Shown here piece after piece: positions 4,673-32,894 of a stretch of 45,229 bases of DNA (the stretch's first letter is position 1; each line of letters begins with the position of its first letter). The stretch spans positions 1 to 45,229 of the forward strand of contig JAXLQU010000031.1 in assembly GCA_046331425.1 (NCBI GenBank). The letters run 5' to 3'. The translations under genes and the position numbers were made by a program. The DNA is from Acidobacteriota bacterium (GTDB lineage Bacteria; Acidobacteriota; Polarisedimenticolia; J045). The notes beneath the pieces are model-generated. The model was given only the letters and a program-made list of their open reading frames with translations, searched no databases and had not been told where the DNA came from.

Positions 4673-4920
4673 CGGCCGTCCCACCCTTCCGCGTCGCCAG
4701 GCAATTCCAATGGCGTCGATTCGTTTGCTATGTGCAGGGTCTTTACAAACCCGACTCTGCCGGGGCACCCCGTACCTAGCAACCACGGAATCTACGCCGA
4801 TCCACAGCAGCCGGGCGGCAACAATGTTCCTATTCGGGGAACCCCTGTCGGCAGGCCAGAGCGGTCGGTGGGGGCGGGCCCAGGCCGCGCGGACGATAGC
4901 GCACCGAACTTGCCGCGGTC

Positions 4921-15030: not shown

Positions 15031-15480
15031 CGCAAAACCCCCTCTGTGACGGTCGGTGCTGGCCTGCGAGACTGTTATCACTCGGTCCACGGCCGGCCGC
15101 GATCCGGCCCGGATTCTGGGTGAATCGGTCTCGCTTTGGGAATGACCTAGTCGCTGAGCGATCTTCAAACACCACTATACGGTTGACGGGACGTCGTTAA
15201 GGTGGGGCGGTTGGGTACTCCTTACCCGTCTCACGACCGGACTGTCACTCGTTGGCCATCTCTGCTCGTCCCGCTCCGGCCCATCCGCGCGGGCTTGCAA
15301 CCGGCGCCCAGGGGCTTTCCTTCCGGGTCGCAGCAGGGATGACCGAACGGTGCAACACCAACTTGATCGCTCTCTCGAACAGGCCTTCAGTCGCGTGATA
15401 CCTCTGGCCGAGTCGCGCATCACAACCGTCGTGGTTGCAACGGGCATCACAGCCTCGACGGCAACTCGGAGGTTTCGTTC

Positions 15481-17139: not shown

Positions 17140-17164
17140 CGACCGCACGACATACGGAGAACTT

Positions 17165-18019: not shown

Positions 18020-18063
18020 ACCCACACCGCGCCTCGCTACGGTACTGCTCCGATTCGCGCTCC

Positions 18064-18093
18064 GAGCCCGCCGCCGGCGGGCTTTTTCTTTGT
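18064..18093 (+). terminator. Rho-independent terminator (GCCCGCCGCCGGCGGGC hairpin followed by TTTTTCTTT)
   Basis: Read directly, 45 nt after the stop of the GlcG-cupin gene. It separates that gene from the DUF692 gene. Coordinates are +/-2. Confidence 0.55.
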
Positions 18094-18129
18094 CTGAAAC
18101 GGGGCGCGCTCGCGCTGCATCCAACCGGC

Positions 18130-18981
18130 ATGAAACAGCACACCATTACCGGCGCAGGAATCGGTTTGCGAAAAGAGCACCACGACACGGTGCTCGCAGA
18201 AAAACCACCGGTCGCCTGGTTCGAAGTGATCTCCGAGAACTTCATGGTCGACGGCGGCAAGCCGATCCAGGTTCTAGACCGTGTGCGACGCGACTACCCG
18301 GTGGTGATGCACGGCGTGTCGTTGTCGATCGGCTCCGATGATCCACTCGACAAAGACTACCTGCGCAAACTCGGGCAGCTCGAAAAGTGGCTGCAACCGT
18401 CACTGGTTTCCGATCACTTGTGCTGGACTTCAGCCGGCGGCCACAACAGCCACGACTTGCTTCCGCTGCCGCGCACCGAAGCGACGCTGCACCGTGTGGT
18501 CGAGAAGATCGGCCAAGTGCAAGACCTGCTCGGCAGGCAATTGCTGCTCGAGAACATCTCCAGTTACCTCGAGTTTCAGCAGTCGACCTTGGGCGAAGCC
18601 GAATTCTTGGCCGAGGTCGCTGTGCGTGCCGACTGTTTGATACTGCTGGACGTCAACAATCTCTACGTCAACACCCGCAATCATGGCTTGGATCCGTTCA
18701 CCTACATGAACTGGCTTCCGGCGGAACGGGTTGCGCAGTTCCACCTGGCGGGCCATCAGGATCTCGGCGATGTCGTGATCGACACTCACGATGGCCCAGT
18801 CTGCACCGATGTGTGGGACCTGTATCGGCGCGCCGTACGGCGCTTCGGCGCAGCACCGACACTGATCGAATGGGACGCCAACATTCCACCGCTTCAGACC
18901 GTGCTGGCTGAAGCACACCGCGCCGATGCCGCCGCTCGCGAAGCGCTGATGGAGCTCAACCATGTGCAGCGCATTGCCTAA
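18130..18981 (+). CDS. bufB: DUF692 family (MbnB/BufB-like, TIM-barrel di-iron) RiPP-modifying enzyme
   Basis: Hallmark DUF692 blocks: GIGLR..H, WFEVISENFM, YPVVMHGVSLSIGS, VSDHLCWT, HDLLPLP.TE and LLLENISSYL. Confidence 0.85.
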   Translation: MKQHTITGAGIGLRKEHHDTVLAEKPPVAWFEVISENFMVDGGKPIQVLDRVRRDYPVVMHGVSLSIGSDDPLDKDYLRKLGQLEKWLQPSLVSDHLCWTSAGGHNSHDLLPLPRTEATLHRVVEKIGQVQDLLGRQLLLENISSYLEFQQSTLGEAEFLAEVAVRADCLILLDVNNLYVNTRNHGLDPFTYMNWLPAERVAQFHLAGHQDLGDVVIDTHDGPVCTDVWDLYRRAVRRFGAAPTLIEWDANIPPLQTVLAEAHRADAAAREALMELNHVQRIA

Positions 18982-19786
18982 GCCGGTCAGCGATCTGGCT
19001 GTGGCCCAACGGAAGTTCTTGCGCGACTTGTCCGGCCTCGAATCGCGGGACGCCGCCTCACGCGCAGAACAGTTCTGTGCGCCACCGGCCGGCGATGTCG
19101 AGCGACGCTGGCACGTCTACACCTCGGGTTACTTCGTGCGGTTACGCGACGTGCTGGCGCAGGACTACCGCGCCATCGCGCGGATTGCTGGTGACGATGC
19201 CTTCAGCGGTTTGGTCGGGCGTTATCTGATGGCTTGCCCACCGCGTCGCTACGACTTGGCGATGGCCGGTGAGCGCTTCCCCAGCTTTGTCGGCAGCGAC
19301 GCACTGAGCTCGAGCCTGCCCTTCATCCCCGACCTCGCGCAGCTCGAGTGCGCTGTTTCCGACTGCTTCATCGCCGCCGAGCCTCAGCCGCTGACCTGGA
19401 AGGGGCTGCGAGAGATGCCGTCAAGCCAAGCGGCCGAGCGCAGCATTGCGCTTCAGCCATCGGCACGCGTGCTTCGCTCGATCTGGCCGCTACGCGACTT
19501 GTGGCAGACCGCCTTCACACCCGAAGACGATGAGATCGATATCGACTTGAGTGAGAAACCACGTTGCTTTCTCGTGCATCGCAACGAGGGTGAGATCTTC
19601 GTGAGAGAGATCGACGACGAGCTCGCCACATTGCTTCAAGCCGCGGAACAGCAGGGCAACACACTCACAGGACTCGCCGCCTCGCTATCGCTCGGTGACG
19701 AGCCCGAGGATGTACGCAGCTTCTTGATGTTGATGCAGCGCGCTCTGGCGCTATCGCTTTTCACTCTCAACCCCGTCGCCACTTGA
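18962..19786 (+). CDS. bufC: DUF2063 family protein (MbnC/BufC-like partner of DUF692)
   Basis: The WHVYTSGYFVRLRDVLAQDY...GDDAF..LVGRYL...P...YDL...GERFPSFV pattern is typical of DUF2063. The start overlaps the end of bufB by 20 nt. Confidence 0.7.
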   Translation: MCSALPKPVSDLAVAQRKFLRDLSGLESRDAASRAEQFCAPPAGDVERRWHVYTSGYFVRLRDVLAQDYRAIARIAGDDAFSGLVGRYLMACPPRRYDLAMAGERFPSFVGSDALSSSLPFIPDLAQLECAVSDCFIAAEPQPLTWKGLREMPSSQAAERSIALQPSARVLRSIWPLRDLWQTAFTPEDDEIDIDLSEKPRCFLVHRNEGEIFVREIDDELATLLQAAEQQGNTLTGLAASLSLGDEPEDVRSFLMLMQRALALSLFTLNPVAT

Positions 19787-19815: not shown

Positions 19816-20136
19816 ATGAACGGAAAGTCGAAGTTGTTTTTGGCAGCATTGGCTGGTGCACTCGCTCTCCCCTCGCTCGCGCTGGCCGAGGACGCCAAGC
19901 CGGGTACCGACAAAGATGCCGGCAAGGTGCCTTGCTGGGGCATCAACAAGTGCAAGGGCGTTGGCGACTGCGGTGCCGATGGCTGCCGTCACAGCGGTTG
20001 TCACGGTTCCAACGGCTGCAACGGCAGCGGCTTCATTCGCTTGGAAGCGGAAACCTGTCTGAAGATCGTGGGTGGCCGCCTGACCAAGGCTGCCGAGCCG
20101 GCCAAGGTCGAAAAGAAGGGCAAGGACAAGAAGTAA
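19816..20136 (+). CDS. bufA: DUF2282-type (bufferin-like) RiPP precursor peptide with Sec signal peptide and 7 Cys
   Basis: MNGKSKLFLAALAGALALPSLALA|EDAKPG..., then a core VPCWGINKCKGVGDCGADGCRHSGCHGSNGCNGSGFIRLEAETCLKIVGGRL that matches the DUF2282 pattern (C[YW]G...NxC...HSxC...TC.KI.GG). Lys-rich tail. GGAGG 7 nt upstream of the ATG. The ORF track begins at TTG 19783. Confidence 0.75.
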   Translation: MNGKSKLFLAALAGALALPSLALAEDAKPGTDKDAGKVPCWGINKCKGVGDCGADGCRHSGCHGSNGCNGSGFIRLEAETCLKIVGGRLTKAAEPAKVEKKGKDKK

Positions 20137-20218: not shown

Positions 20219-22024
20219 CTAGATCAATCCCACATGCCGCATCAACTCCAGGGCGTTGCTCTTGGAAACAACACCCTCGTGCAGGCGATAGTCGAAGCGC
20301 ATCTCACCGCCTTCCAGGTGATCGACAAAGTGCACGTTCCGAACATCGCTCCCCAACGAGGCGGCGCTCTCGGTGAGCGCTAGGTCATGCGTGGTCAATA
20401 GGCCAATCGCTCCAAGCGTGTGCAACTCGCGCATCAGCGCTTCGGCTCCCAGCTTGCGATCGTGCGAGTTGGTTCCCGACAGCAACTCATCGATCAGAAA
20501 CAGAAGCGGAGATCCGTCGCGAGCGATCTGCACGATCGTCCGCAAACGATCGAGTTCCGCCAAGAAGCGTGAGCGGCCATCCAACAGCGAGTCTTGCGCT
20601 CGCAACGACGCCCCGAGCGAAAGCGGCGTGAGCGTCAGGCTTGCGGCGCGCACGGGTGACCCTGCTTGGGCCAGCACCGTATTCACACCGATCGAGCGAA
20701 GCAGCGTGCTCTTCCCCGACATGTTGGATCCGCTGACGATTAGCAGGCGTGTGGTTGCCCCGAGTCGCACATCGTTGTGGACGCAGCGTTCGAGCGGTAG
20801 CAGCGGGTGCCCGAGCTTTTCCGCCTCGAATCGCGGGGCGCCGCTCACCAATTGCGGGTAGACCATTTCCGGCTGCTCGAATGCGAACGCCGCCAAAGCG
20901 GAAAGCGCTTCCAATTCGCCCGCCGCCTCGAACCAGTCATGCACCGCTGGGCCGTAACGAGCGCGCCACGTTTCCACAGCCAATGCATGCTGCGTGGCCC
21001 AAAATAATGGCAGCGACACGGGAAGAAAGATCTGATTGAGACGCCAATCGAGGCGATCGAGCGTGGCCGCCAACTGCGCGATCGCGCGCGACGCCGGCGC
21101 CTCGCCCGCGATGCGCCGCTGCAATACCACCAGCGCCGGCGACGCAAACGGCTCCACCTCGATTCGTTGCAGCAGTCCCGACAGTACCTTCAGTTCGGGA
21201 GCGGCCCCCTCCGCCGCTGTCAATACCGCTTCGACGCGCGGACGCAGGTACGTCCCCAGGAATCCAGATGCGATCAACACCGTTGGACCACACCACCATG
21301 GAATCGAGGAGATCGAGCCAAAGGACCACTGCGACCATGACGCCGTCATCAACAAGAGCGCTGCGAGGTTGGCCACAACGGCGAACCCCACCGGCACGCG
21401 CCAAGCGCTCAGATCGGCCTTGCGAGCACGACCCCAACCCTCCAAGAGATCAGCATGCACGCGGCGGGTCGCCTCCTCGCCCAACAGCGCCAGTGCCTCG
21501 CGCAACTCGACGCGCGGCGTGAGCTCTTGAATTGCGAGTTGTCGCGCGCGCACCTCGTCCGGCGCACTCGGGGTCGACAGCCAGCGGGCGAGCGCCCGCC
21601 GACCAGCATTCGTTCGGGTGCTCGCCAATCGTTCGAACAACGAACCGCGCCCATACAGGTCAAGGTCGAGTGCAAACGGGTGCGCCGCCTCGAAAAGGTC
21701 GTTGCCATCGTCGCCGGTACCGGGCCACTCCCCAGCCAAACGGGCCAAGCCTGCTTCGTAGAAACGTACCGCGCGGGCCGCGCGTCGAGCCGCCTGCAGC
21801 GCGCGATCGTGAATCAGCACTGTCGTTGCGAACGCAACGACGGCCGCGCCGACCCACCAGGGTGAGATTCGGCCCGAAGCGGCCAGGGCCAGCGCCCCGA
21901 TCCCCGCTATGAGTAAGGCCAACCTCGATCCCACGAACAGTCGGTCGCGGCCGGCCATGGCGGCCTCGACCCCGCGCCAGTGATCGCGGCGACGTTCGTA
22001 TTCGTGCTGAGGTGTGTGATTCAT
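20219..22024 (-). CDS. MutS-family ATPase (domain V ABC-type ATPase only; no mismatch-binding or connector domains; N-terminal TM helices)
   Basis: C-terminal IVSGSNMSGKSTLLRSIG (Walker A), ...LLFLIDELLSGTN (Walker B/D-loop) and TTHDL (H-loop). Hydrophobic segments in the N-terminal half. Start at Met95 (MNHTPQ); an alternative is Met85 at 22054. The ORF track begins at 22306. Confidence 0.65.
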   Translation of the reverse strand: MNHTPQHEYERRRDHWRGVEAAMAGRDRLFVGSRLALLIAGIGALALAASGRISPWWVGAAVVAFATTVLIHDRALQAARRAARAVRFYEAGLARLAGEWPGTGDDGNDLFEAAHPFALDLDLYGRGSLFERLASTRTNAGRRALARWLSTPSAPDEVRARQLAIQELTPRVELREALALLGEEATRRVHADLLEGWGRARKADLSAWRVPVGFAVVANLAALLLMTASWSQWSFGSISSIPWWCGPTVLIASGFLGTYLRPRVEAVLTAAEGAAPELKVLSGLLQRIEVEPFASPALVVLQRRIAGEAPASRAIAQLAATLDRLDWRLNQIFLPVSLPLFWATQHALAVETWRARYGPAVHDWFEAAGELEALSALAAFAFEQPEMVYPQLVSGAPRFEAEKLGHPLLPLERCVHNDVRLGATTRLLIVSGSNMSGKSTLLRSIGVNTVLAQAGSPVRAASLTLTPLSLGASLRAQDSLLDGRSRFLAELDRLRTIVQIARDGSPLLFLIDELLSGTNSHDRKLGAEALMRELHTLGAIGLLTTHDLALTESAASLGSDVRNVHFVDHLEGGEMRFDYRLHEGVVSKSNALELMRHVGLI

Positions 22025-22109
22025 CGGACCTGAAGGGTAACCCAGCCGATTCATGCCTGCGTTTTGAAACCATTGGCAGAGGCTGTGCATCCTACGCCAG
22101 GACCCCCGA

Positions 22110-22694
22110 GTGGGCAGCCAAGAGGACGGCATGGAACCGACGATCGACCCGAACTGGGAGAACACACTGGCATCGCGAGAGGCAGTGCGGGTTCTGCGCT
22201 GGGCCGACGAGGCGATTCGCGAGCGTGGGTCGTTTCGAATCGCGCTCGGGGGTGGAGCCAACCTGCGTCCCTTGTTGGCTGCGATCGCGTTGGAGAGTGA
22301 GCACACCCGCGCGGATTTCCACCGCTGGCATGTCTACTGGTGCGAGGAAAGACACGTCCCTCCCTATCACCGCGACAGTTGCTATCGACTGGCCGAGCAA
22401 GCGCTGTTGGGCCGCGTGCCGGTGCTTCCCGAGAATTTGCATCGCATTCGCGCCGAACATCGCGATCCGCATGAAGCGGCTCGCAGCTATGAGTTGCTGC
22501 TGCGCCGCAGCTTCGCGATGTCGGCCGGCGATCTGCCGCAGTTCGATGCGGTCGTGGTTGGCAGCCGAGCCCAGGGAACGGTGATCGGCCTCACGGGGGC
22601 GGTCTTGAACGTTGCGCGCCACGTTCTGACGTGGGGCGATGCGCCACCTTTGCCCGCGCTGCCCTCACTTGCCGGTGTGAGGACGCAGGCGTGA
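22110..22694 (+). CDS. 6-phosphogluconolactonase/glucosamine-6-P deaminase-family protein (divergent C-terminus)
   Basis: RIALGGGAN...W..VHVYWCEERHVPP.H.DS(C)YRL pattern resembles Pgl (IALSGG...vhvf.gDERcVP..h.dSN). The catalytic DGHTAS region is not conserved (QGTVIGLTG). The stop overlaps the sigma-factor GTG (GTGA). Confidence 0.45.
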   Translation: MGSQEDGMEPTIDPNWENTLASREAVRVLRWADEAIRERGSFRIALGGGANLRPLLAAIALESEHTRADFHRWHVYWCEERHVPPYHRDSCYRLAEQALLGRVPVLPENLHRIRAEHRDPHEAARSYELLLRRSFAMSAGDLPQFDAVVVGSRAQGTVIGLTGAVLNVARHVLTWGDAPPLPALPSLAGVRTQA

Positions 22695-23374
22695 CCGCAA
22701 ACGACCGCCACGCGGAGACACCGCGCGAGCGTGATAGCCTGGCGCCTGTGTGGAACCCCGTGAAGAACTCGGCGCCATCGGCCCAGCCGTCAAGCGAGGC
22801 CGATCTGATCCAGCGCCTTCGAGCCGGCGATGAGCGCGCCTTCGAGCAGGTGGTTCGAACGCACTCGGGACGCTTGCTCTCCGTCGCACGCCGCTTCATG
22901 CGCAACGACGACGATGCGTGCGATGTCTTGCAGGAAGCGTTTATTTCGATGCATCGCGCGATCCACTCGTTCGAGTCGGGCGCGCGGCTCTCCACCTGGC
23001 TGCACCGCATCACCGTCAATTGCGCGCTGATGAAGATTCGCTCGCGCAAGTGCCGGCCCGAGATCGCGATCGACGACCTGATGCCGCGCTTCACCGAGGA
23101 CGGTCATCACGTCGACCCACCCTGCCCCTGGGCTGAAGACACCGACGTCTCCATGGCCCGCGAGCAAACGCGCACGATGGTCCGCGCGGCGATCGATCGC
23201 TTACCCGAGAACTATCGAACCGTGCTGTTGCTCCGCGACATCGAGGAACTCGACACTGAGGAGACAGCCCAGGTCCTGGGAATCAGCGCCAATGCCGTGA
23301 AGGTCAGGTTGCATCGCGCTCATCAAGCGCTGCGCACGATGATCGACACGCACTTCAAGGAAACACTCCGATGA
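22691..23374 (+). CDS. ECF (sigma-70 group IV) sigma factor
   Basis: Region 2 (DLIQRLRAGDERAFEQVV...DVLQEAFISMHRA...WLHRITVNCALMKIRSR) and region 4 (LPENYRTVLLLRDIEELDTEETAQVLGISANAVKVRLHRAHQALR). The GTG start is inferred from overlap with the upstream stop. An alternative start is further downstream. Confidence 0.75.
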   Translation: MTANDRHAETPRERDSLAPVWNPVKNSAPSAQPSSEADLIQRLRAGDERAFEQVVRTHSGRLLSVARRFMRNDDDACDVLQEAFISMHRAIHSFESGARLSTWLHRITVNCALMKIRSRKCRPEIAIDDLMPRFTEDGHHVDPPCPWAEDTDVSMAREQTRTMVRAAIDRLPENYRTVLLLRDIEELDTEETAQVLGISANAVKVRLHRAHQALRTMIDTHFKETLR

Positions 23375-23613
23375 CTTGCCGAGAGTTTGCCGAGTTCATT
23401 GATTCCTTCATCGGTGGTGGGCTTTCCAACGATGAAGCGCAGGAGTTTCACCGCCACTTGGCGGTGTGCAGCGATTGCGTCAACTACATCGACACCTATC
23501 GGCGCACGATCGCCATGAGCAAGCGTGCCTTCGAGTCGATGCCCGAAGCCTCGGTGCCCGAGGATGTGCCTGAAGATCTGGTGAAAGCGATCCTGGCATC
23601 CCGCAAGCCTTGA
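23371..23613 (+). CDS. Short cytoplasmic ZAS (zf-HC2, HxxxCxxC) anti-sigma factor
   Basis: 80 aa, no TM segment. It contains C3, and H29-LAV-C33-SD-C36 (HRHLAVCSDC) is the zinc anti-sigma motif. ATGA overlap with the sigma-factor stop. Confidence 0.65.
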   Translation: MTCREFAEFIDSFIGGGLSNDEAQEFHRHLAVCSDCVNYIDTYRRTIAMSKRAFESMPEASVPEDVPEDLVKAILASRKP

Positions 23614-23657
23614 TCGAGAGCGTCCTGGCCCATCGAGCCTGACCAACATGCTGATGA

Positions 23658-26318
23658 GTGGCGAGCGCGACTCCGGCAGGCGTAGCATCCTGCGTTGCTG
23701 TGTTGCCGACACTCGCATCTCGGCCTGGGCGAGGACCTCAAACGACTCCTTCACCTTTCATCGATCGACTTCGACGTTGGCTCGGCCCCGTCTTCGCCGC
23801 ATCGCTGTTCGGGGCGGCACTCTGGGCGATTCATCGCGAGCTGGGACCGTATCATCACGGGCAAATCGTCGAGGCGCTGCAGCAGATACCGGCGTCGCGC
23901 ACACTGCTCGCGCTGCTCCTGACGGTGACCAGCTATCTGCTCCTGACGCTCCTCGATCAGGTCACGCTTCGTGCGATCCACGTAACGCTTCCCTATCGCC
24001 GCGCCAGCTTTGCCTCGCTCGTGGCCTACGCCTTCAGTCATAGCGTCGGCTTTGCCGCGGTCACCGGCGCGGCAATCCGATACCGCTTGTATTCGGCCTG
24101 GGGACTTTCAGCGTCAAAGATCGCGCAGTTTCTGGTCTTGGGAACCACTGCTTTCTGGCTCGGTTTTGCGCTGGTCGGCGGCGTTTGGTTTGTCAAGGAC
24201 GCGAGCGACGTAAGCGAGAGTTCTCTTCTTCGAACGCCTCGCGCGACGTTCTGTCTTGGACTGCTGCTGTTGTCGCTGCTCTCGATCTATCTGGTGGTGT
24301 GCCTTCGGCGGCGCAGGTTCCGCGTTCTGCCCTGGCGCGACTACGATCTCCCGCTGCCGTCGCCGTCATTGGCGATTCTGCAAACCGGCATTTCAGCACT
24401 CGACTGGATCGCGAGTGCTGCAGTGTTGTGGGTCCTGCTCGATCAACCCGAGATGTCGTTGTGGCGATTCCTTGGCGTGTTTCTGCTCGCTCAAGTGGCG
24501 GGAGTGATCAGTCAGATACCGGGCGGGCTGGGTGTGTTCGAATCGTTGGTGCTGACGTTGACCGGGGATGCCCACCCCACGCCTGCGATCGCAGCGGCGT
24601 TGATCTCGTATCGGTTGCTCTATTACGTGCTGCCGCTCGTCACCGCTGCCGCGCTCTTCAGCGCACGTGAGACCTTCGCTCGCTGGCCGAGGGTCGAGCG
24701 GGTCTCGCGAGCAATGGGGCGATGGGCTTCGGGCGTGATTCCCACGCTGCTGACTGTGACCACCTTCGCTGCTGGAATCGTCCTGCTCGTGTCGGGCGCG
24801 ACACCGGCGGAGAGCTGGCGTCTGAAGTGGCTGCGCGATGTCGTCCCGCTTCCTGTGATCGAACTCTCGCACTTTCTCGGCAGCCTGACCGGAGCCGGTC
24901 TCCTGCTCTTGGCTCGCGGCCTTCAACAACGCCTCGATGCTTCCTACACGCTGACCGCGCTGTTGCTTGCCGCCGGGGCAGGCTTTTCACTCGCCAAGGG
25001 CGTGGACTATGAGGAGGCGTTGTTCTTGGTCGGCATGTTGGCGCTGTTGTTGCCGTGTCGCCGCCACTTCTATCGACGCGCATCGCTGTTCGCCGAACCG
25101 TTCACGCCGGGCTGGCTCGTGGCCGTAGCGGCCGTGATCGCCGCCACCGCTTGGATCAGTGTGTTCGCGCACAAACATGTCGAGCTCGCTGGCGATTTGT
25201 GGTGGACATTCGCATTCAGAGGCGATGCCTCGCGCACGCTCCGCGCGCTGACCGGTGTGGTGGCACTCGTTGCCGTGATCGGTACGGCGCGATTGCTGCG
25301 GCCCGCACCGGCCCGGCCTCAGCTCCTCACCAGCGACCAGAAACCGCGACTGCTTCAGGCGCTTGCGAACTGCTCCGACACGTCGGCCAACTTGGCGTTG
25401 CTGGGCGACAAAGCGGTGCTCTTCAGCCCAACCGGGAACAGCTTCGTGATGTACGCGGTCGAGGGGCGGAGTTTCGTAGCACTCGGCGATCCTTCGGGGC
25501 TCCAGAGCGAGATCGCGGACTTGGCCTGGCGGTTTCGCGAGTTGGCCGACCGGCATGGCGGCTACACCGTGTTCTATGAAGTCTCCGCTAGCCGATTACC
25601 GATGTACCTCGATATGGGTTTGGCGCTAGTCAAGCTAGGCGAGGAGGCGCGGGTCGCGTTGGATGAGTTCTCGATTCAGGGCAACTCCGGCAAGTCGTTT
25701 CGCAGCGCCATCAACAGCATGACCAAGGACGGATGCAGTTTCGAGATCGTCGCGACGGCCGACGTTCCGGCTCTTCTTCCCACGCTTCGTGCGATATCGG
25801 ACGCCTGGTTGGCGAGCAAGAACACGCGGGAGAAGGGGTTCTCACTGGGGTACTTCGACGAGGAGTATTTGGCGAACTTTCCGATGGCGGTGGTCCGTCA
25901 GCACGGCAGGCCGATTGCGTTCGCGAACATTTGGGCCGCCTCTGACGGCGGTGAGTTGTCGGTCGATCTGATGCGGTTTGCCGAGGATGCGCCCAAGGCA
26001 ACGATGGACTTTCTGTTCTTACAGACGATGCTGTGGGGCAAGGAGCGGCACTACCGGTGGTTCAACTTGGGAATGGCACCGTTGTCCGGACTGGAGGCGC
26101 ATCGGTTGGGGCCACTCTGGGGGCGCGTGGCGTCGTTTGTCTTCCGACACGGCGAGCACTTCTACAACTTCCAGGGCTTGCGTCAGTACAAGCAAAAGTT
26201 CTCCCCGGATTGGCAGCCGCGATATCTGGCGTTTCCGGGTCGTCTTACGTTTGCTCGAGTGTTGCTCAACGTTGCTTCCTTGACTTCCGGGGGTTTGAGA
26301 GGCGTGGTGACCAAATGA
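23658..26318 (+). CDS. mprF: Aminoacyl-phosphatidylglycerol synthase / flippase (MprF/LpiA family: LPG_synthase_TM + DUF2156 lysyl-tRNA-dependent transferase domain)
   Basis: About 14 TM helices over ~540 aa, then the C-terminal DUF2156-like domain (...FVMYAVEGRSFVALGDPSG...YTVFYEVS...YLDMGLALVKLGEEARV...FSIQGNSGKSFRSAIN...). Confidence 0.8.
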   Translation: MASATPAGVASCVAVLPTLASRPGRGPQTTPSPFIDRLRRWLGPVFAASLFGAALWAIHRELGPYHHGQIVEALQQIPASRTLLALLLTVTSYLLLTLLDQVTLRAIHVTLPYRRASFASLVAYAFSHSVGFAAVTGAAIRYRLYSAWGLSASKIAQFLVLGTTAFWLGFALVGGVWFVKDASDVSESSLLRTPRATFCLGLLLLSLLSIYLVVCLRRRRFRVLPWRDYDLPLPSPSLAILQTGISALDWIASAAVLWVLLDQPEMSLWRFLGVFLLAQVAGVISQIPGGLGVFESLVLTLTGDAHPTPAIAAALISYRLLYYVLPLVTAAALFSARETFARWPRVERVSRAMGRWASGVIPTLLTVTTFAAGIVLLVSGATPAESWRLKWLRDVVPLPVIELSHFLGSLTGAGLLLLARGLQQRLDASYTLTALLLAAGAGFSLAKGVDYEEALFLVGMLALLLPCRRHFYRRASLFAEPFTPGWLVAVAAVIAATAWISVFAHKHVELAGDLWWTFAFRGDASRTLRALTGVVALVAVIGTARLLRPAPARPQLLTSDQKPRLLQALANCSDTSANLALLGDKAVLFSPTGNSFVMYAVEGRSFVALGDPSGLQSEIADLAWRFRELADRHGGYTVFYEVSASRLPMYLDMGLALVKLGEEARVALDEFSIQGNSGKSFRSAINSMTKDGCSFEIVATADVPALLPTLRAISDAWLASKNTREKGFSLGYFDEEYLANFPMAVVRQHGRPIAFANIWAASDGGELSVDLMRFAEDAPKATMDFLFLQTMLWGKERHYRWFNLGMAPLSGLEAHRLGPLWGRVASFVFRHGEHFYNFQGLRQYKQKFSPDWQPRYLAFPGRLTFARVLLNVASLTSGGLRGVVTK

Positions 26319-27748
26319 TGCGAATGACGTTCGGATTGTTGCTCTTGGCGTCGAGTTTCGTAGCGAGCGCAGGCACGCAAATGTCAAACAACGAGTCGCT
26401 GACATTCGGTGCGTTTGGCAAGGTCGCGCTGTATCGCCCAGCCTCTGCCATCGAGGATGTCGTGCTATTCGTTTCCGGAGACGGCGGCTGGAATCAAGGC
26501 GTGGTCGACATGGCAAAGCAACTGGTCTTGATGAATGCGCTCGTGCTGGGCATCGACATGCCGCGATTTGAAACCGCATTGAAGGCTGAGAAAGGCGCAT
26601 GCGCCTACCCTGCCGCCGAGTTCGAAGCGTTGAGTCAGTACGTCCAAAAGAAGCTCGACTTGCCGGACTACAAGACCCCGATTTTGGCGGGCTACTCTTC
26701 AGGCGCAACTCTGGTGTACGCGCTCTTGGCGCAAGCACCGGGCGGAACCTTCGCCGGCGGGTTGAGCCTCGGCTTTTGCCCCGACCTGGAGGTCACCAAA
26801 CCACTGTGCAAAGGAAGTGGCCTAACGTTCGTGCCGTTGCCCAAGAAGAATGGCTTCGTCTTCGATGCCAACCCTGCACTCCCCGCTCCGTTTCACGTGC
26901 TGCAAGGCGACATCGATCAGGTCTGTCAGCCCGAGGCGACACGCACCTATCTTTCCAAGATCCCAGCGGCAAAACTGTATTGGCTCCCGAAGGTCGGACA
27001 CGGCTATTCGGTCCCCAAGAACTGGTTGCCTCAGTTCCGCGACGCCTATCGTGATCTAAGAACGGTGAGCGCTCCCGATCGAACGCAAGCACACACGTCG
27101 CTCGGTACGACGGGCGCATCGACGCCATCAGTCGATGATCTGCCGCTGGTCGAGGTGCCGGCCGTCGGGGAAGTGCAGGACAGCGTGGCGGTGATTCTCA
27201 CCGGAGATGGCGGCTGGGCCGGACTCGACAAGCAAGTTGCCGGCGCGTTGGCCGCGCGCGGAATCCGCTGTATCGGCTGGAATTCCCTGCGCTACTACTG
27301 GACCGCGCGGACACCCGACTCAGCCGCGGCCGATCTCGCCCGCATCGTGCTACTGATCCAAGCGCAGTCGCCGGGCGCGAAGGTCCTGCTGATTGGCTAC
27401 TCGCTGGGCGCGGATGTCTTGCCGTTCCTGATCTCGCGTCTCTCCGAGACGCAACGGATGATGATCGCATCGGCCACGTTCATCGCGCCTTCGTTGTCGG
27501 TGGCGTTCGAGTTTCATCTCTCCAACTGGACAGGCGGCTCGCAGGCGGACGCCAAGCCGACGCTCCCTGAGATGCAAAAGCTCGCAGGCATGAAGCTGTT
27601 GTGCCTGTACGGAACCGACGACGAAGACTCGCTTTGCCCCAAGCTTCCGGCAGAACTGGCCAGCGTTCAGAAGATGCCGGGTGGACATCACTTTGGTGGT
27701 GATTACGAGGCCGTTGCCTCTCGGATCATTGCGGCAACCCAGCCGTAG
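26315..27748 (+). CDS. acvB: AcvB/VirJ-like periplasmic aminoacyl-PG hydrolase (tandem VirJ alpha/beta-hydrolase domains)
   Basis: Signal peptide MMRMTFGLLLLASSFVASA. Two related halves each carry a ...V(L/I)..(S/T)GDGGW... block (VVLFVSGDGGWNQGV and VAVILTGDGGWAGLD), plus GYSSGA and GYSLGA nucleophile elbows. Start at Met95 of the track ORF, overlapping the mprF stop (ATGA). This is the known lpiA-acvB gene order. Confidence 0.7.
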   Translation: MMRMTFGLLLLASSFVASAGTQMSNNESLTFGAFGKVALYRPASAIEDVVLFVSGDGGWNQGVVDMAKQLVLMNALVLGIDMPRFETALKAEKGACAYPAAEFEALSQYVQKKLDLPDYKTPILAGYSSGATLVYALLAQAPGGTFAGGLSLGFCPDLEVTKPLCKGSGLTFVPLPKKNGFVFDANPALPAPFHVLQGDIDQVCQPEATRTYLSKIPAAKLYWLPKVGHGYSVPKNWLPQFRDAYRDLRTVSAPDRTQAHTSLGTTGASTPSVDDLPLVEVPAVGEVQDSVAVILTGDGGWAGLDKQVAGALAARGIRCIGWNSLRYYWTARTPDSAAADLARIVLLIQAQSPGAKVLLIGYSLGADVLPFLISRLSETQRMMIASATFIAPSLSVAFEFHLSNWTGGSQADAKPTLPEMQKLAGMKLLCLYGTDDEDSLCPKLPAELASVQKMPGGHHFGGDYEAVASRIIAATQP

Positions 27749-27816
27749 AAATATTCGATGCCGGGCTCTCTCGCAGGAGAACCCGGCATCGTCGAGCGGA
27801 GGGAGGGAGGAGGTCG

Positions 27817-29274
27817 TTATGAAATAGAGAGCGGGAGAAAAACCGTTTCTCCTCGGCGAATCACCTGCACCAAGGCCGTGTCACTGTCTTTGACAGCCAA
27901 GAGCTTCTCGCGCGCCTGTCTGGCATCACTGACCGGCTGACGATTGATGCTCACGATCACATCACCCGACTCGAAACCACTGCGCGATGCAGGGCTGGCC
28001 GGAGCCACGTCGTTGATCAGCGCGCCATCGCCGTCATACTGCAGCGCTTGACGAACTCGCGGCGTGAGATCGGCGAGGGCGAAGCCGAGTTTCCCGCGCC
28101 CATCGCGTTCTGGCGCCGAGGCTTGTTGACCGTTGTCGCGCTCGGCGAGCTTCACCACGAGTTGCTTTCGATTGCCATCGCGCAAGACCGTCAGCCGAGT
28201 GGTTGTTCCAGGTGCCAGCGAGGCGACACGGTGACGAAGGTCGGCACTGGTCTTGACCGCGGTGCTGTCGACCTCGAGCACCACATCGCCGGTCTTCAAT
28301 CCTGCGTCGTCACCAGGGCCGCCAGGTTCAACGGTTCCGACCAGCACACCTCGCTCGGCGCCGAGCTCGAGTGCGCGCGCGAGCGGCGCGTTCACGTCTT
28401 GAACCGATGCCCCCAGGTAACCGCGCACGATTTTTCCGTTGGCCATCAGTTGCTGAGCGATCTCGCGCGCCATGTTCGAGGGGATCGCCAGACCAACCCC
28501 TTGAAAACCACCGCTTCGTGACAGGATCGCCGTGTTGATGCCGATCAGGCGCCCAGCGGTATCGACCAACGCACCGCCACTGTTGCCCGGATTGATCGCT
28601 GCGTCGGTTTGAATGAAGTCTTCATACTCGGTCAGTCGCAAGTTGCTGCGGCCCGTGGCGCTGACGATGCCGGCCGTGACGCTGTGTTGAAGCACTGGGC
28701 CGAAGGGGCTCCCTAACGCCAGCACCCATTGCCCCACCTGGACATTGTCGCTATCGGCGAACGGCACGGTGGGTAGATTCGCTCCATCGATTTTCAGCAC
28801 GGCGAGGTCGGTCATGGGATCGGTGCCGAGGACCTTGGCGGTGCGGCGGTCGCCGTCTGGAAGTAGCACATCGATCGACTCGGCCCCGTCGACGACGTGA
28901 TTGTTGGTCAGGATCACACCGTCTTCTCGCACGATCACGCCGCTACCGAAGGAACCATCTTCCGGTGTGGGATCACCACCGCGATCGCCGCGAAACATCA
29001 TGGGGATACCGTCCCGCGCTGCCTCGGCTCGCTTGGCAACTTGTATCGACACGATGGCGGGATTGACGCGAGCCGCCACGCCCACAAACGGATCTGAGTT
29101 GACGGTGGGGGCGGAGCCGGTTACGGGCGCAGGGAGCTTGGAGGCGCCTTCTCGTGTTTCGTACCACTTGGTTCCCGCTGCGATCGCACCAACGGTGCCG
29201 AGCACGAACATCACTGCGAGTGCACTGGCTCCTAAGAATTGACCTCTTCTTTGCATCATCGTCTCCCTCATCAC
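27817..29274 (-). CDS. htrA: DegP/HtrA-family periplasmic serine endoprotease (trypsin domain + 2 PDZ)
   Basis: Signal peptide/TM. LTNNHVV (His), DLAVLKI (Asp) and GNSGGALV (Ser) form the catalytic triad context. Two PDZ-like regions follow (GVLVGTVEPGGPGDDAGLKTGDVV; GALINDVAPASPASRSGFESGDVI). Confidence 0.9.
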   Translation of the reverse strand: MMRETMMQRRGQFLGASALAVMFVLGTVGAIAAGTKWYETREGASKLPAPVTGSAPTVNSDPFVGVAARVNPAIVSIQVAKRAEAARDGIPMMFRGDRGGDPTPEDGSFGSGVIVREDGVILTNNHVVDGAESIDVLLPDGDRRTAKVLGTDPMTDLAVLKIDGANLPTVPFADSDNVQVGQWVLALGSPFGPVLQHSVTAGIVSATGRSNLRLTEYEDFIQTDAAINPGNSGGALVDTAGRLIGINTAILSRSGGFQGVGLAIPSNMAREIAQQLMANGKIVRGYLGASVQDVNAPLARALELGAERGVLVGTVEPGGPGDDAGLKTGDVVLEVDSTAVKTSADLRHRVASLAPGTTTRLTVLRDGNRKQLVVKLAERDNGQQASAPERDGRGKLGFALADLTPRVRQALQYDGDGALINDVAPASPASRSGFESGDVIVSINRQPVSDARQAREKLLAVKDSDTALVQVIRRGETVFLPLSIS

Positions 29275-29487: not shown

Positions 29488-30111
29488 TCAGTCGCGACGC
29501 CCTTCGTCCTCGAGCGCATGCAAGCGTTCACCGAGTTCCGTCATGAACGATTCTTTATCTCCGGTCCACGTGACCGGCTGCCCGACAAACAGGTCGCAGA
29601 AGAACGGAACGAACAGTGCTTCGCCCTTGGGCAGTGCCATGTTCAGGCCGCGAACGTAGATCGGCACCACCGGTACCGCAGGGTGCCGGCGGGCGAGATG
29701 CGCGACACCCGTCTTCAATTCGCCCATCTCGCCGGTCAGGCTGCGCGTCCCTTCCGGAAACAACACCGCCATTCCGCCCTGCGACAAGAACTCGCCGACC
29801 TCGGCCAGCGGATCTCCCTCCGAGACCTTGGGTCGGCGCGACAACGGTATGATCCCGATCACGTTCAACGAGAACCAAGCCACGAGTCGATTGCGCAAGA
29901 AGTAGTCGGCAGCCGCGACCGGTCGAAGCTTCGGCAGAGAACTCAACGGGTAGAGCGACATCAGCACCAGTGCGTCGAGGTGACTGGCATGGTTGGCCAC
30001 GAGAATCGCGGGGCCGCGGTTGGGCAACAGTTCGCGACGTCGCACGTTCAGTCCCAACCCGATCAGCACCAATGGGCGGACGATCAACGCGAAGAACATT
30101 AGCCTCAGCAT
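29488..30111 (-). CDS. plsC: 1-acyl-sn-glycerol-3-phosphate acyltransferase (LPLAT/PlsC family)
   Basis: NHASHLD (HX4D) and FPEGTRS motifs. N-terminal TM. Confidence 0.85.
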   Translation of the reverse strand: MLRLMFFALIVRPLVLIGLGLNVRRRELLPNRGPAILVANHASHLDALVLMSLYPLSSLPKLRPVAAADYFLRNRLVAWFSLNVIGIIPLSRRPKVSEGDPLAEVGEFLSQGGMAVLFPEGTRSLTGEMGELKTGVAHLARRHPAVPVVPIYVRGLNMALPKGEALFVPFFCDLFVGQPVTWTGDKESFMTELGERLHALEDEGRRD

Positions 30112-30118
30112 CGGCGCC

Positions 30119-31069
30119 TCAAAAGTGGAGGTAGCGGATGAAGTGCGTAAACAGCGGCGCTGTATAGATCAGGCTGTTGACGCGGTCGATGACCCCACCG
30201 TGCCCGGGAATCATGTCGCTGGCGTCTTTGACGCCGATGTCGCGCTTGAGCGAGGCCATCGCACAGTCGCCGATGAACCCACCGACACCAATGATCACAC
30301 CGGCGATCAGTGACTGATGGACCGTCAGCGGCGTGAAGTAGGGCGCCGCGAGATACGACAGCAGCACCGTGGTGGCGGCGCCTCCCAGCATCCCACCCCA
30401 GGTTTTGTTGGGACTCACCGTCGGCAAGATCTTGCGACGTCCGAGCGACTTTCCCCACACATACTGCGCCACGTCGTTGAGTTGCGTAAGGCAGACCAAA
30501 AACAGAACCATCGCAGGCCCGGAAGCGGTTGTACCGGTTCTGCTCTCGACGGTCGGCATCACCAACAACCACGCAAGGTGCGATAGGCAGAAGACCATCG
30601 TCATCAAACCCCAGTGGATGGTGCTGATCGCGCGAACGTACCCGGCTGTCTCGCCAATCGTGATCATGCGAAACGGCAAGAAGAGAAACACATAGACCGG
30701 GATGAACAACACGAAGAAGCCGTACCAACCTTGCGCAATCAGATAGTACTGAATCGGTATCGCCAGATAGGCCCAGAACAGAATGCGGCGATCGGCGCGG
30801 CGCACCGCGATCAGTGCGAAGTACTCCTTCAGCGCCAGAAAGCTCACAAACGCGAAGAAGACAACGGTGATACGCCAGGACGACAGCATCGCAACCGCAA
30901 AGATGCCGACCATGATCCACCAGCCCCACAGTCGATCACGCAGCTCGACGAACAGCTTGGGCGTCAGGCGTGACTCGAGGGCGAACACGATCAGGCTGAC
31001 CAGCGCCAACACCGCCACGATCACGCCGAACGTTTTCACCACCAGATCTTCTGCGTGCAACCAGCTCAC
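30119..31069 (-). CDS. cdsA: Phosphatidate cytidylyltransferase (CDP-diacylglycerol synthase)
   Basis: C-terminal signature KTWGGMLGG...GDCAMASLKRDIGVKDASDMIPGHGGVIDRVNSL. The GTG start is behind GAGGTG and overlaps the upstream gene stop (GTGA). The ORF track begins at 31159. Confidence 0.85.
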   Translation of the reverse strand: MSWLHAEDLVVKTFGVIVAVLALVSLIVFALESRLTPKLFVELRDRLWGWWIMVGIFAVAMLSSWRITVVFFAFVSFLALKEYFALIAVRRADRRILFWAYLAIPIQYYLIAQGWYGFFVLFIPVYVFLFLPFRMITIGETAGYVRAISTIHWGLMTMVFCLSHLAWLLVMPTVESRTGTTASGPAMVLFLVCLTQLNDVAQYVWGKSLGRRKILPTVSPNKTWGGMLGGAATTVLLSYLAAPYFTPLTVHQSLIAGVIIGVGGFIGDCAMASLKRDIGVKDASDMIPGHGGVIDRVNSLIYTAPLFTHFIRYLHF

Positions 31070-31680
31070 TGTCGCACCTCGCGCAGCGCGTGGCGGCAGC
31101 GATTGAGTACGGTGAGCCCCGCAAGCAGCGCAACAGCGACCAGCACGATCGCACTCCATCGGCCACGCCTGATTCCCAGTCCAATCAGCAGGTAGACCAC
31201 TCCAAACACGAACGCCCGATCGCTCTTGCCCATCGGTCCGTCATAGCGGCGCGATGCACCGACCTGCACAGCGGCAACGCCAGCCAGCTCTGTGAGCGCC
31301 GCCAGAAACACCGCCGCGACCGCGGCCGACGCATGTCGCGGGCCGAGGGCTGCCATCGGCAAATAGAGCGCTGCATCCGAAACGACATCGCTGAGCTCGT
31401 TGAGCAAGCCTCCCAACGCCGACTTCTGGCCATGCTCGCGAGCCAACATTCCATCGATTGCATTCAGCGCCATCCGCGCAAACAGCACGACCGGCGCAAG
31501 CAGGTACCAGCGCGGCTGCCACGGAGCGATGAACCACAACAACAGGCCTGTTCCGATCGACATCAGCATCGCGACGGTGGTCACCTGATTGGCCGTCACG
31601 CCGGCCCCTGCCATCGTTCGGCAGACTGGCCGCAAGAGCGCTTGGAACTTCGGCTTCACATCGTAGATCGTTGCCATCAC
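31066..31680 (-). CDS. CDP-alcohol phosphatidyltransferase family protein (PgsA/Pss-type; headgroup specificity unknown)
   Basis: D-G-x2-A-R-x8-G-x3-D-x3-D motif present as NAIDGMLAREHGQKSALGGLLNELSDVVSD. Multi-TM. Confidence 0.75.
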   Translation of the reverse strand: MMATIYDVKPKFQALLRPVCRTMAGAGVTANQVTTVAMLMSIGTGLLLWFIAPWQPRWYLLAPVVLFARMALNAIDGMLAREHGQKSALGGLLNELSDVVSDAALYLPMAALGPRHASAAVAAVFLAALTELAGVAAVQVGASRRYDGPMGKSDRAFVFGVVYLLIGLGIRRGRWSAIVLVAVALLAGLTVLNRCRHALREVRQ

Positions 31681-31701
31681 GCTCTCCCGTGGCTCGGTCG
31701 C

Positions 31702-32877
31702 CTACAGTACCTCGCGCAAGACGCGCAGCGCGTTCGCGCCCATGACAGCGCGGACCTCGTCATCGGAGAAACCGGCGTCGATCAGCGCCTGCGTCACCTG
31801 CGAAATATGACTTGCGTCGAACGCTGTGGTAACGGCGCCGTCGAAGTCGGAGCCGAGCGCAACATGTTCTATTCCCATCACCGAGGCGGCATGCCTGACG
31901 GCCCGCGCAATGTCCCGCGGACTCGTGCCGCACACGGCCGCCTCCCAGTAGCCGATCCCGACCACGCCGCCCGTGGCGGCAATCCCCTGCAACGCGTGAT
32001 CCGACAGGTTTCGATTGTTGTCGCACGTCCCGCGTACACCGGTGTGCGATGCCACCAGCGGCTTGGTGGCTAGCGCCAGCGTTTCATCGATTGCTTGTGG
32101 CGATGCGTGCGAGAGATCGATCGCGATCCCCAGCCGTTGCATCTGCTGCACGACCTCACGACCCAACGAGGTGAGTCCGCCTCGACCCAGACCGTGGATC
32201 GACCCAGCCACCTCGTTGTCGAAGAGGTGCGCCAAACCCATCATTCGGAAACCTGCGTCGTAGAGCTGTTGCAGATTCTCCAACTTTCCGTCGAGCGCGT
32301 GCAGTCCTTCTACCGCCAGCAGCCCACCCAGAGCCTGGGGCGCGTCCAACCGATGTCGCAGCAGCGCCTCGAGGTCACCGCGCGTTCGCAGCAGCGAGAG
32401 ATCGTTGCGTGAGTCGTTCGACCAGCGCTCCAAGCGCGCACCTTGATACAACGTTCTCTGCACGTTGCTCCGCCAGGTGCCCACCGGCCACAACTGCGCG
32501 ATTGCCAGCGGCGTGACGCGATCGAAATCACTCGCCCTGCGCCCCGTGTCGTTTCCCTCCGGTGCTTGCGACACCGTCGAAAACACCTGCACGGTGACAT
32601 TTCCCTCCCTCAGACGAGGGAAATCGATGTGTCCTCGCGTGCCCCGCTCGGTCAGGTCACGCCGCCAGAATAGTGAGTCGGCGTGTAGGTCGACGATGGT
32701 CAGTGACCGAGTCAGTTCGAGCGCATGCTGGGATATCGGCAACAGTCCTTGCGGTACAACGGCGTTGTAATGCCTTTCAACGCGTGCCGGCAACGGCCCG
32801 AAGAAGATCACAGCAGCCAGCACCAGACAGATTGCTGCTGGGGTGACGAGGTAGTGTCGCAAGAACATTGCGCTCAT
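31702..32877 (-). CDS. Membrane dipeptidase (peptidase M19 / renal dipeptidase family) with N-terminal signal anchor
   Basis: VDLHADSL, GLAHLFDNEV, DLSHAS, ASHTGVRG and GSDFDG blocks. The start (Met24) is uncertain. The ORF track begins at 32946. Confidence 0.75.
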   Translation of the reverse strand: MSAMFLRHYLVTPAAICLVLAAVIFFGPLPARVERHYNAVVPQGLLPISQHALELTRSLTIVDLHADSLFWRRDLTERGTRGHIDFPRLREGNVTVQVFSTVSQAPEGNDTGRRASDFDRVTPLAIAQLWPVGTWRSNVQRTLYQGARLERWSNDSRNDLSLLRTRGDLEALLRHRLDAPQALGGLLAVEGLHALDGKLENLQQLYDAGFRMMGLAHLFDNEVAGSIHGLGRGGLTSLGREVVQQMQRLGIAIDLSHASPQAIDETLALATKPLVASHTGVRGTCDNNRNLSDHALQGIAATGGVVGIGYWEAAVCGTSPRDIARAVRHAASVMGIEHVALGSDFDGAVTTAFDASHISQVTQALIDAGFSDDEVRAVMGANALRVLREVL

Positions 32878-32894
32878 CGAACGACTCGGCGGCA

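Follow-up and report, generated by a model that had tools for sequence, protein, structure and literature searches.

A predicted promoter motif shared by an ECF sigma factor/minimal ZAS anti-sigma operon and a bufferin-like cluster in an Acidobacteriota genome, with a lineage-specific mprF-acvB cassette downstream

Organization of the locus

We analyzed a 45,229-nt stretch of DNA (the window; contig JAXLQU010000031.1) from an Acidobacteriota metagenome-assembled genome (MAG). At 22110-27748 it carries five open reading frames (ORFs), all co-directional, that encode a truncated Pgl-like protein, an extracytoplasmic function (ECF) sigma factor, a small zinc-binding anti-sigma (ZAS) protein, MprF and AcvB. 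This gene order, given in a preliminary description of the window, was borne out by the sequence and by Pfam and NCBIfam matches (Table 1). We find that one predicted ECF-type promoter motif stands both before the sigma operon and before a bufferin-like gene cluster, for a ribosomally synthesized and post-translationally modified peptide (RiPP), 4 kb upstream. The mprF-acvB genes at the downstream end appear to be a lineage-specific addition.

Three of the junctions within the block are 4-nt overlaps. GTGA at 22691-22694 is common to the stop codon of the Pgl-like gene and the GTG of the sigma gene, and ATGA is common to a stop codon and an ATG both between the sigma and anti-sigma genes (23371-23374) and between mprF and acvB (26315-26318). 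Such overlaps are common among co-directional genes and are unremarkable alone. Every junction had been described as coupled; the three overlaps are indeed exact, but the junction between the anti-sigma gene and mprF is different. The gap there is 44 nt only with the longest ORF, which begins at GTG 23658, and is 86 nt with the publicly annotated mprF start, GTG 23700. In the related locus L095, the 141 nt that follow the anti-sigma stop codon are without a canonical start codon up to the first possible mprF start. GTG 23658 was therefore rejected as a certain mprF start, and the mprF junction is not coupled in the manner of the other three. At the other end of the block, the Pgl-like gene more likely starts at ATG 22131, just downstream of the sequence AAGAGGA and in agreement with the public annotation, than at GTG 22110.

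Table 1. Genes and predicted regulatory features of the window discussed in the text.
Feature	Position	Strand	Basis or remark
Weak candidate promoter GTGATACC...GCATCACA, SGL/HbpS-cupin genes (tentative)	15395..15424	+	PWM 12.9
ECF-type promoter before MNIO gene (predicted)	18095..18122	+	Exact match; top PWM score, 24.7
MNIO enzyme gene (DUF692, MbnB/TglH/ChrH family), bufferin-like cluster	18130..18981	+	PF05114, E = 1.7e-109
DUF2063 (HvfC_N) partner of MNIO	18962..19786	+	PF09836, E = 1.5e-13
Weaker motif copy AGAAAC-N16-GCATCG, possible internal promoter (tentative)	19554..19581	+	Two mismatches; PWM 11.4
BufA1/DUF2282-like precursor, signal peptide and Cys-rich core	19816..20136	+	Translation
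ECF-type promoter, probably autoregulatory (predicted)	22065..22092	+	mutS-pgl divergent spacer; exact match, second-best PWM score
Truncated Pgl-like gene	22131..22694	+	187 aa, ATG 22131; alternative start GTG 22110
ECF sigma gene	22691..23374	+	227 aa; Sigma70_r2 plus r4_2
ZAS (class I) anti-sigma gene, cytoplasmic product	23371..23613	+	80 aa; zf-HC2
Non-ECF promoter-like footprint TGGCGAG-N17-TAGCAT	23659..23688	+	Three-way alignment of window, L006 and L095
mprF, aminoacyl-phosphatidylglycerol synthase/flippase	23700..26318	+	872 aa (public annotation); NF033480; longest ORF from GTG 23658
acvB (VirJ-type), periplasmic aminoacyl-phosphatidylglycerol hydrolase with signal peptide	26315..27748	+	Pfam VirJ
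15-bp G+C-rich hairpin, acvB/degP convergent gap	27756..27791	.	Terminator scan; probable transcription-unit end

A widespread sigma factor/minimal ZAS pair

The sigma factor contains only sigma-2 and sigma-4 domains in Pfam (Sigma70_r2, residues 55-120; Sigma70_r4_2, residues 163-212) and scores 90.6 bits against TIGR02937 (cut-off 42.9). Its best NCBIfam model, PRK11922, gives 185.8 bits and lies under the cut-off of 204; a named ECF group could not be assigned from NCBIfam or from the main text of PMC7826278. The N-terminal extension is conserved in the relatives P0001 and P0002. More than 7,700 homologues are found at E <= 1e-20. A genome scan returned 80 loci, about 45 of which encode a sigma factor of this kind (43-62% identity) with a minimal ZAS gene immediately downstream. 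The pair resembles ECF (group IV) systems in that the anti-sigma gene lies directly downstream of, and overlaps, the sigma gene and in the AAC-containing -35 element of its predicted autoregulatory promoter. We conclude that the pair belongs to a large uncharacterised family found in Acidobacteriota, Planctomycetota and Myxococcota.

The anti-sigma factor matches zf-HC2 (Pfam, E = 1.1e-7) and carries C3 and H29-x3-C33-x2-C36, with no hydrophobic segment in its 80 residues; an earlier account of it as a short soluble protein with an HxxxCxxC motif and an N-terminal Cys is thus correct. C3, H29, C33 and C36 are invariant in all 45 distinct orthologues, which are 75-88 residues long, so that the family pattern is C-x25-H-x3-C-x2-C. 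An AlphaFold2 model, with a predicted local distance difference test (pLDDT) score of 86.8, has four helices (residues 3-14, 20-32, 34-55 and 68-77), and its best Foldseek matches in the PDB are RslA, RsiW, MucA and RskA, with weak E-values (0.13-0.7 for the top RslA, RsiW and MucA matches). Together, sequence and model identify the protein as a minimal soluble class I ZAS protein, with zinc binding and sigma binding both predicted. It is like RsrA, the partner of SigR (ECF12), and like RslA and RsiW in being a small anti-sigma factor with Cys-25 residues-HxxxCxxC, in its predicted four-helix anti-sigma-domain fold, and in being encoded by a gene that overlaps, and is predicted to be co-transcribed with, that of its ECF sigma factor; it is also soluble, as RsrA is. 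It is unlike RsrA in being shorter and in having the RsrA redox residues replaced, and the promoter motif described below is unrelated to the SigR-type motif.

The preliminary description had gone further and likened the anti-sigma factor to RsrA and ChrR, and hence to sensors of thiol oxidation or metal. Redox-sensitive ZAS proteins are marked by E39, E40, L45 and E46 of the sequence HFEECSPCLEK (Jung et al., PMC3177212). The corresponding residues here are A31, V32, V37 and N38 (H29-LAV-C33-SD-C36-VN), which do not match, and the RsrA equivalog model TIGR03988 gives 22.7 bits, below its cut-off of 62.5. A C-terminal cupin sensor domain of the ChrR type was not found in the protein, whose 80 residues comprise the anti-sigma domain only. 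The protein is not ChrR-like, and the reading of it as an RsrA-like thiol sensor is not supported. It may still act as a thiol-oxidation switch, but none of the sequence indicators at hand points to one.

The first gene of the operon encodes a protein that matches only positions 4-135 of 225 of the Glucosamine_iso/Pgl profile in Pfam and does not reach the cut-off of TIGR01198 (84.9 bits; cut-off 124.45). Aligned to the mycobacterial Pgl 3oc6, it lacks about 65 residues, the C-terminal third, and has AQGT in place of GEGH, so that the catalytic histidine of the GxxGH motif is replaced. A recent pseudogene was considered and rejected: the short form is conserved in the relatives L006 and L002 at 54-88% identity, C-terminus included. 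The protein is probably a conserved truncated derivative rather than a catalytic lactonase. In this clade its gene is translationally coupled to the sigma gene, and the protein could be a third regulatory component of the sigma module.

A predicted promoter motif of the sigma family

Two approaches were used to look for a promoter recognized by the sigma factor. Bipartite k-mer enrichment across 46 sigma-upstream regions, carried out de novo, returned only G+C-rich noise, with nothing significant after correction. The motif was found by comparative footprinting, that is, by side-by-side reading of the upstream regions of the closest relatives, which contain TG(T/A)AACC-N15-GCATCC. Across the family the motif reads G(T/A)AAC(C)-N16-GCATC(C/G)nA. 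In the window, searched on both strands, exact TGAAAC-N16-GCATCC occurs twice against 0.01 expected. Both matches are on the plus strand and just upstream of gene starts. One lies in the spacer between the Pgl-like gene and a MutS-like gene that is upstream of it and divergent from it, and the other ends 7 nt before the ATG (18130) of the MNIO gene and comes after a hairpin with a T-run, similar to a terminator, at about 18062-18090. The site before the Pgl-like gene is found in the same place in L006, L096 (with a score of 20.0 on the matrix described next) and L002, and upstream of the sigma gene in L004.

A position weight matrix (PWM) trained without window sequences, and scanned over about 90,000 positions of the window, ranks the site before the MNIO gene (18094) first at 24.7 and that before the Pgl-like gene (22064) second at 14.9. 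The fourth-best score in the window belongs to an intergenic site, 86 nt before ATG 15481, which is a weak candidate for a promoter of the SGL and HbpS-like/cupin genes. A further copy, among the top six of the window, falls within the 3' end of the DUF2063 gene, some 235 nt upstream of the precursor gene. Going upstream from the MutS-like gene, the genes that these sites accompany are those of the BufA1-like precursor, DUF2063 protein and MNIO enzyme (DUF692), and then the HbpS-like/cupin and SGL genes.

The motif is also enriched in other genomes. Among loci with this sigma family, the core regular expression gives 60 matches compared with 22.5 +/- 5.0 in dinucleotide shuffles, and matches with an A three bases after CATC, a position not selected by the expression, number 39 compared with 4.0. 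In a Planctomycetes locus that was not used for training (L092), PWM sites of 17-24 bits precede the sigma operon, a DoxX-GDE-MGH1 operon and the HbpS/cupin-SGL genes (17-22 bits for the last). Elsewhere, genes behind motif sites include those for NDH-2, a thioredoxin-like protein, cytochrome P460 and GDE. SGL (SMP-30/gluconolactonase) and HbpS-like/cupin homologues occur at 15481-18019 in the window, at 8480-13470 in L092 and near the sigma gene in L050. In a Planctomycetota MAG (L026), a strong motif site near a sigma/ZAS pair precedes a gene at 3126-3416 whose product, a lipoprotein by prediction, carries CNGPNGCNG repeats and may be another Cys-rich metal-binding peptide.

We considered whether the shared motif could be a chance or compositional coincidence and not the promoter of this sigma factor. 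The motif is short, with 12 specified bases, and the de novo enrichment missed it. False positives do occur: the DNA encoding the sigma region 4 peptide RTVLLLRDIE mimics the motif (GAAC-N-ACATCGA) and produces matches inside sigma genes, as at 23215-23245 in the window and at 6845 in L090. However, such a coincidence would have to account for two exact matches, both at gene starts, where 0.01 are expected, for the tenfold enrichment of the unselected flanking A, and for 17-24-bit intergenic sites before recurring gene families in independent loci. It would also have to account for the resemblance of the -35 element to the experimentally mapped motif of Caulobacter SigF (PMC3511200). We regard this explanation as very improbable.

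At many sites (L038, L013, L018, L026, L012 and L077) the distance from the start of the motif to the start codon is 34-40 nt. This leaves few bases between the -10 element and the start codon, which suggests that leaderless mRNAs are common in this regulon. The MNIO transcript that would start from the upstream promoter of the window is probably leaderless as well.

Relation to the bufferin-like cluster

The MNIO (multinuclear non-heme iron-dependent oxidase) and DUF2063 genes of the window are followed by a gene for a candidate bufferin-like precursor, which has a weak precomputed match to PF10048 (BufA1); a fresh Pfam scan of the precursor was empty at E <= 0.01. The precursor is 89% identical in the relative L002, where bufA adjoins the mutS-pgl-sigma-anti-sigma block. 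Several more distant loci also place the motif or the sigma/ZAS pair near such genes. In L038 the order is sigma gene, ZAS gene, motif, a gene for a Cys-rich (secreted) precursor, and MNIO gene; in L009 a BufA-MNIO-DUF2063 cluster lies 4 kb from the sigma/ZAS pair, with a matching -10 element; and in L018 a DUF2063 gene is preceded by the motif. The sigma factor had been proposed as the nearest dedicated regulator of the RiPP cluster, and the exact motif directly before the MNIO gene supports this well.

ECF control of such clusters has a precedent. In Caulobacter vibrioides, SigF and its anti-sigma factor NrsF control the buf1 and buf2 operons (PMC11626156), and the SigF motif has been mapped as GTAACC-N16-CGAA (PMC3511200). 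The system of the window is like SigF-NrsF in that an ECF sigma gene lies near an MNIO-DUF2063-precursor cluster and is predicted to drive it, and the -35 element G(T/A)AACC resembles GTAACC. The two systems are unlike in their anti-sigma factors, an 80-residue cytoplasmic ZAS protein here and a six-helix membrane protein in the case of NrsF, and in their -10 elements, GCATC(C/G)nA here and CGAA for SigF. They also differ in host and in gene content. The cluster of this Acidobacteriota MAG has the order MNIO-DUF2063-precursor and no DoxX gene; DoxX and NrsF were not found among the genes scanned around it, where the ZAS anti-sigma factor is present instead. The main text of a survey of MNIO enzymes (PMC12452194) mentions sigma factors with NrsF, and mentions zf-HC2 or zinc nowhere.

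Two side observations concern this cluster and the copper-related content of the window. The precursor gene follows the MNIO and DUF2063 genes, whereas in the Caulobacter buf operons it precedes them. Another gene with a possible link to copper, at 950-4786 on the minus strand, encodes a 1278-residue protein that has beta-helix repeats and a copper-binding motif of the MopE type.

The mprF-acvB cassette and its linkage to the sigma operon

MprF is a full-length bifunctional protein with LPG_synthase_TM and LPG_synthase_C domains in Pfam, and it matches positions 1-840 of the 841 of NF033480 (921.9 bits; cut-off 600). AcvB has an N-terminal signal peptide, MMRMTFGLLLLASSFVASA, in its translation and aligns across both VirJ-type alpha/beta domains to Agrobacterium tumefaciens AcvB (9xhm). 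The equivalents of the catalytic Ser336 and His433 are kept, and GYSLGAD and GGHHF are conserved. In the A. tumefaciens enzyme, which has a catalytic Ser and His, D370 and E384 bind the epsilon-amino group of lysine (PMC13197417); read against that paper, the alignment has Ala397 and Gln410 at these positions, and the head group may thus be one other than lysine, such as that of alanyl-phosphatidylglycerol (Ala-PG). The pairing of synthase and hydrolase genes had been noted as already known, and we agree that this is a well-known cassette. As in the lpiA-acvB and mprF-PA0919 operons, the mprF stop codon overlaps the start of a gene for a secreted two-domain VirJ/AcvB hydrolase with Ser and His kept; unlike those operons, the cassette stands behind a sigma/anti-sigma pair and has Ala and Gln as the lysine-contact residues.

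We found that mprF-acvB follows the sigma/ZAS pair only in close relatives, in which mprF is at least 78% identical. The order sigma, ZAS, mprF is kept in L006 (sigma 92% identical) and in L095 (MprF 78%), and in L096 (sigma 83%) mutS is again followed by the divergent promoter and by the pgl, sigma and ZAS genes. In L001-L003, where the sigma factor is 68% identical, the anti-sigma gene is followed directly by a convergent acyltransferase-cdsA block, and mprF-acvB-degP is absent; L004 and L005 have no Pgl-like gene either. None of the roughly 45 sigma/minimal ZAS loci of the genome scan has MprF, AcvB or the Pgl-like protein within 10 kb, none of the 80 loci returned has an MprF or AcvB match, and neither family is among the called genes of four further family contexts. 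Conserved sigma/ZAS-mprF synteny across the family was accordingly rejected. The closest MprF relative outside the close group (62% identical) is encoded by an mprF-acvB cassette with no sigma gene nearby. With the linkage present in close relatives only and absent elsewhere, these genomes indicate that it is lineage-specific and a recent add-on.

Downstream of acvB and convergent to it lie genes for DegP, an acyltransferase, CdsA, a CDP-alcohol phosphatidyltransferase and an M19 peptidase. The block from acyltransferase to M19 peptidase (29488-32946, minus strand) is syntenic with the 68% relatives, from which it follows that phospholipid-synthesis genes adjoined the sigma pair before mprF-acvB was present.

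Control of mprF-acvB

A search for shared -35/-10 elements had been proposed before the Pgl-like and MNIO genes, where the two exact matches lie, and also before mprF, where none lies: over the 370 nt that precede mprF the PWM scores no higher than -6.5, and no ECF-type motif was found there. Instead, the window, L006 and L095, when aligned with one another, share a non-ECF promoter-like footprint, TGGC(G/T)AG-N17-TAGCAT, and a second conserved block, GGGCGAGGACCTCA, at 23727-23740. Both blocks are conserved while the surrounding sequence has diverged, and both are untranslated in L095. We infer from this conservation that the footprint is a housekeeping-type mprF promoter. The terminator scan found no terminator-like site between the anti-sigma gene and mprF (23613-23700). 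The fold of the spacer is not more structured than that of shuffled sequences (z = 0.61), on which ground an attenuator or terminator in the spacer was rejected. An Rfam scan of the whole window matched no family, and mprF is thus not preceded by any known riboswitch or leader. Since nothing resembling a terminator precedes mprF, read-through into mprF-acvB from the promoter at 22065-22092 is plausible.

These data bear on two rival explanations. According to the first, mprF-acvB is dedicated to the sigma factor and obligately dependent on it, and the five genes form one lipid-remodelling operon under thiol or redox control. In its favor, the five genes form a compact block in one direction and mprF is not preceded by a terminator, their order is kept in three close relatives, and in Streptomyces coelicolor sigma E fully controls mprF (sco3397) (PMC6767563). 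The sigma E case is alike in that an ECF sigma factor contributes, or here would contribute, to the expression of mprF, in Streptomyces as part of an envelope response. There, however, mprF is served by a sigma E promoter of its own and is completely dependent on it, and sigma E is under CseABC; in the window mprF lacks a cognate promoter, and read-through would be the only means of coupling. With the conserved non-ECF block in the spacer, the absence of the linkage from the 68% sigma relatives, from the roughly 45 family loci and from the closest outside MprF relative, and the failure to match both the RsrA redox determinants (PMC3177212) and the equivalog model, we find obligate dependence improbable. 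Support for the proposed thiol-controlled membrane-lipid unit is thus weak: its co-directional block stands and read-through is plausible, but the ECF motif before mprF and the RsrA determinants are missing.

The second explanation is that mprF-acvB is an independent unit with a housekeeping-type promoter, placed behind the sigma operon by an accident of insertion with no regulatory consequence. This would fit the survival of the footprint in a diverged spacer, the cassette that stands alone beside the 62% MprF relative, and the lack of mprF-acvB-degP between the anti-sigma and acyltransferase genes of L001-L003. On the other hand, with no terminator-like structure some read-through would be hard to avoid unless termination is Rho-dependent, and the arrangement persists to an MprF identity as low as 78%. 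Full independence therefore seems rather unlikely to us.

A model for the sigma module

The model that we favor, and hold to be reasonably probable, is an autoregulated sigma module with a bufferin-like target and a separable mprF-acvB cassette served both by a promoter of its own and by read-through. The core module would consist of the Pgl-like gene, the ECF sigma gene and the minimal ZAS gene, driven by the sigma factor's own promoter at 22065-22092. The same promoter type directly before the MNIO-DUF2063-BufA cluster would make that cluster a dedicated sigma target, and a weaker copy may act before the SGL and HbpS/cupin genes. The cytoplasmic anti-sigma factor probably releases the sigma factor on metal or oxidant stress, upon which expression of the periplasmic metallophore cluster would increase along with that of the sigma operon. 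The mprF-acvB cassette came to stand after the anti-sigma gene in this narrow lineage alone, and the spacer most probably supplies it with a constitutive promoter of its own. It would also receive read-through from the sigma-dependent promoter, because transcription is not expected to terminate before 27756. Activation of the sigma factor would then add to a basal capacity for aminoacyl-phosphatidylglycerol (aminoacyl-PG) turnover and would not be its sole switch.

Several points weigh against this model. Gene identities, overlaps, motif occurrences with their statistics and patterns of synteny are observations, but all of the promoters are predictions, and read-through and the signal sensed by the anti-sigma factor are inferred. 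The PWM score of the site at 22065-22092 (14.9) is within the range of the best shuffled-window scores; what supports this site is where it lies and that it is conserved. The footprint before mprF fits the sigma-70 consensus at only 7 of 12 positions, a sigma-70 consensus scan of 21800-28200 gave no matches (the footprint being under the threshold), and parts of the footprint could be coding in the window. Finally, MNIO or DUF2063 genes are near the pair in only about 4 of the 45 family loci; with these genes in a minority of loci, control of bufferins is not universal in the sigma family.

Implications

ECF control of bufferin clusters (SigF-NrsF) and of mprF (sigma E, PMC6767563) was already known, as was the pairing of mprF with acvB. 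What is new is a family of cytoplasmic minimal ZAS proteins with a defined predicted promoter, linked to bufferin clusters, and the lineage-specific attachment of mprF-acvB to a sigma operon. Taken as a whole, our broadest reading is tentative and somewhat doubtful: that a minimal ZAS family spread over three phyla uses the promoter G(T/A)AACC-N16-GCATC(C/G)nA, often with leaderless transcripts, to control bufferin genes as well as those for DoxX, NDH-2, thioredoxin-like, SGL and HbpS proteins, and has captured mprF-acvB in this lineage.

The analysis provides a concrete predicted promoter motif, and hence a testable regulon, for an orphan ECF family in phyla with almost no genetics. It also suggests a second control route for copper-buffering bufferin clusters, through a cytoplasmic anti-sigma factor with a zinc motif, besides the membrane sensor NrsF of Caulobacter. 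For membrane-lipid biology, the consequence would be at most extra transcription of the genes for aminoacyl-PG synthesis and hydrolysis, in one lineage, during the stress response. If the broad reading is true, metal or oxidant stress would in this lineage also adjust the surface charge of the membrane.

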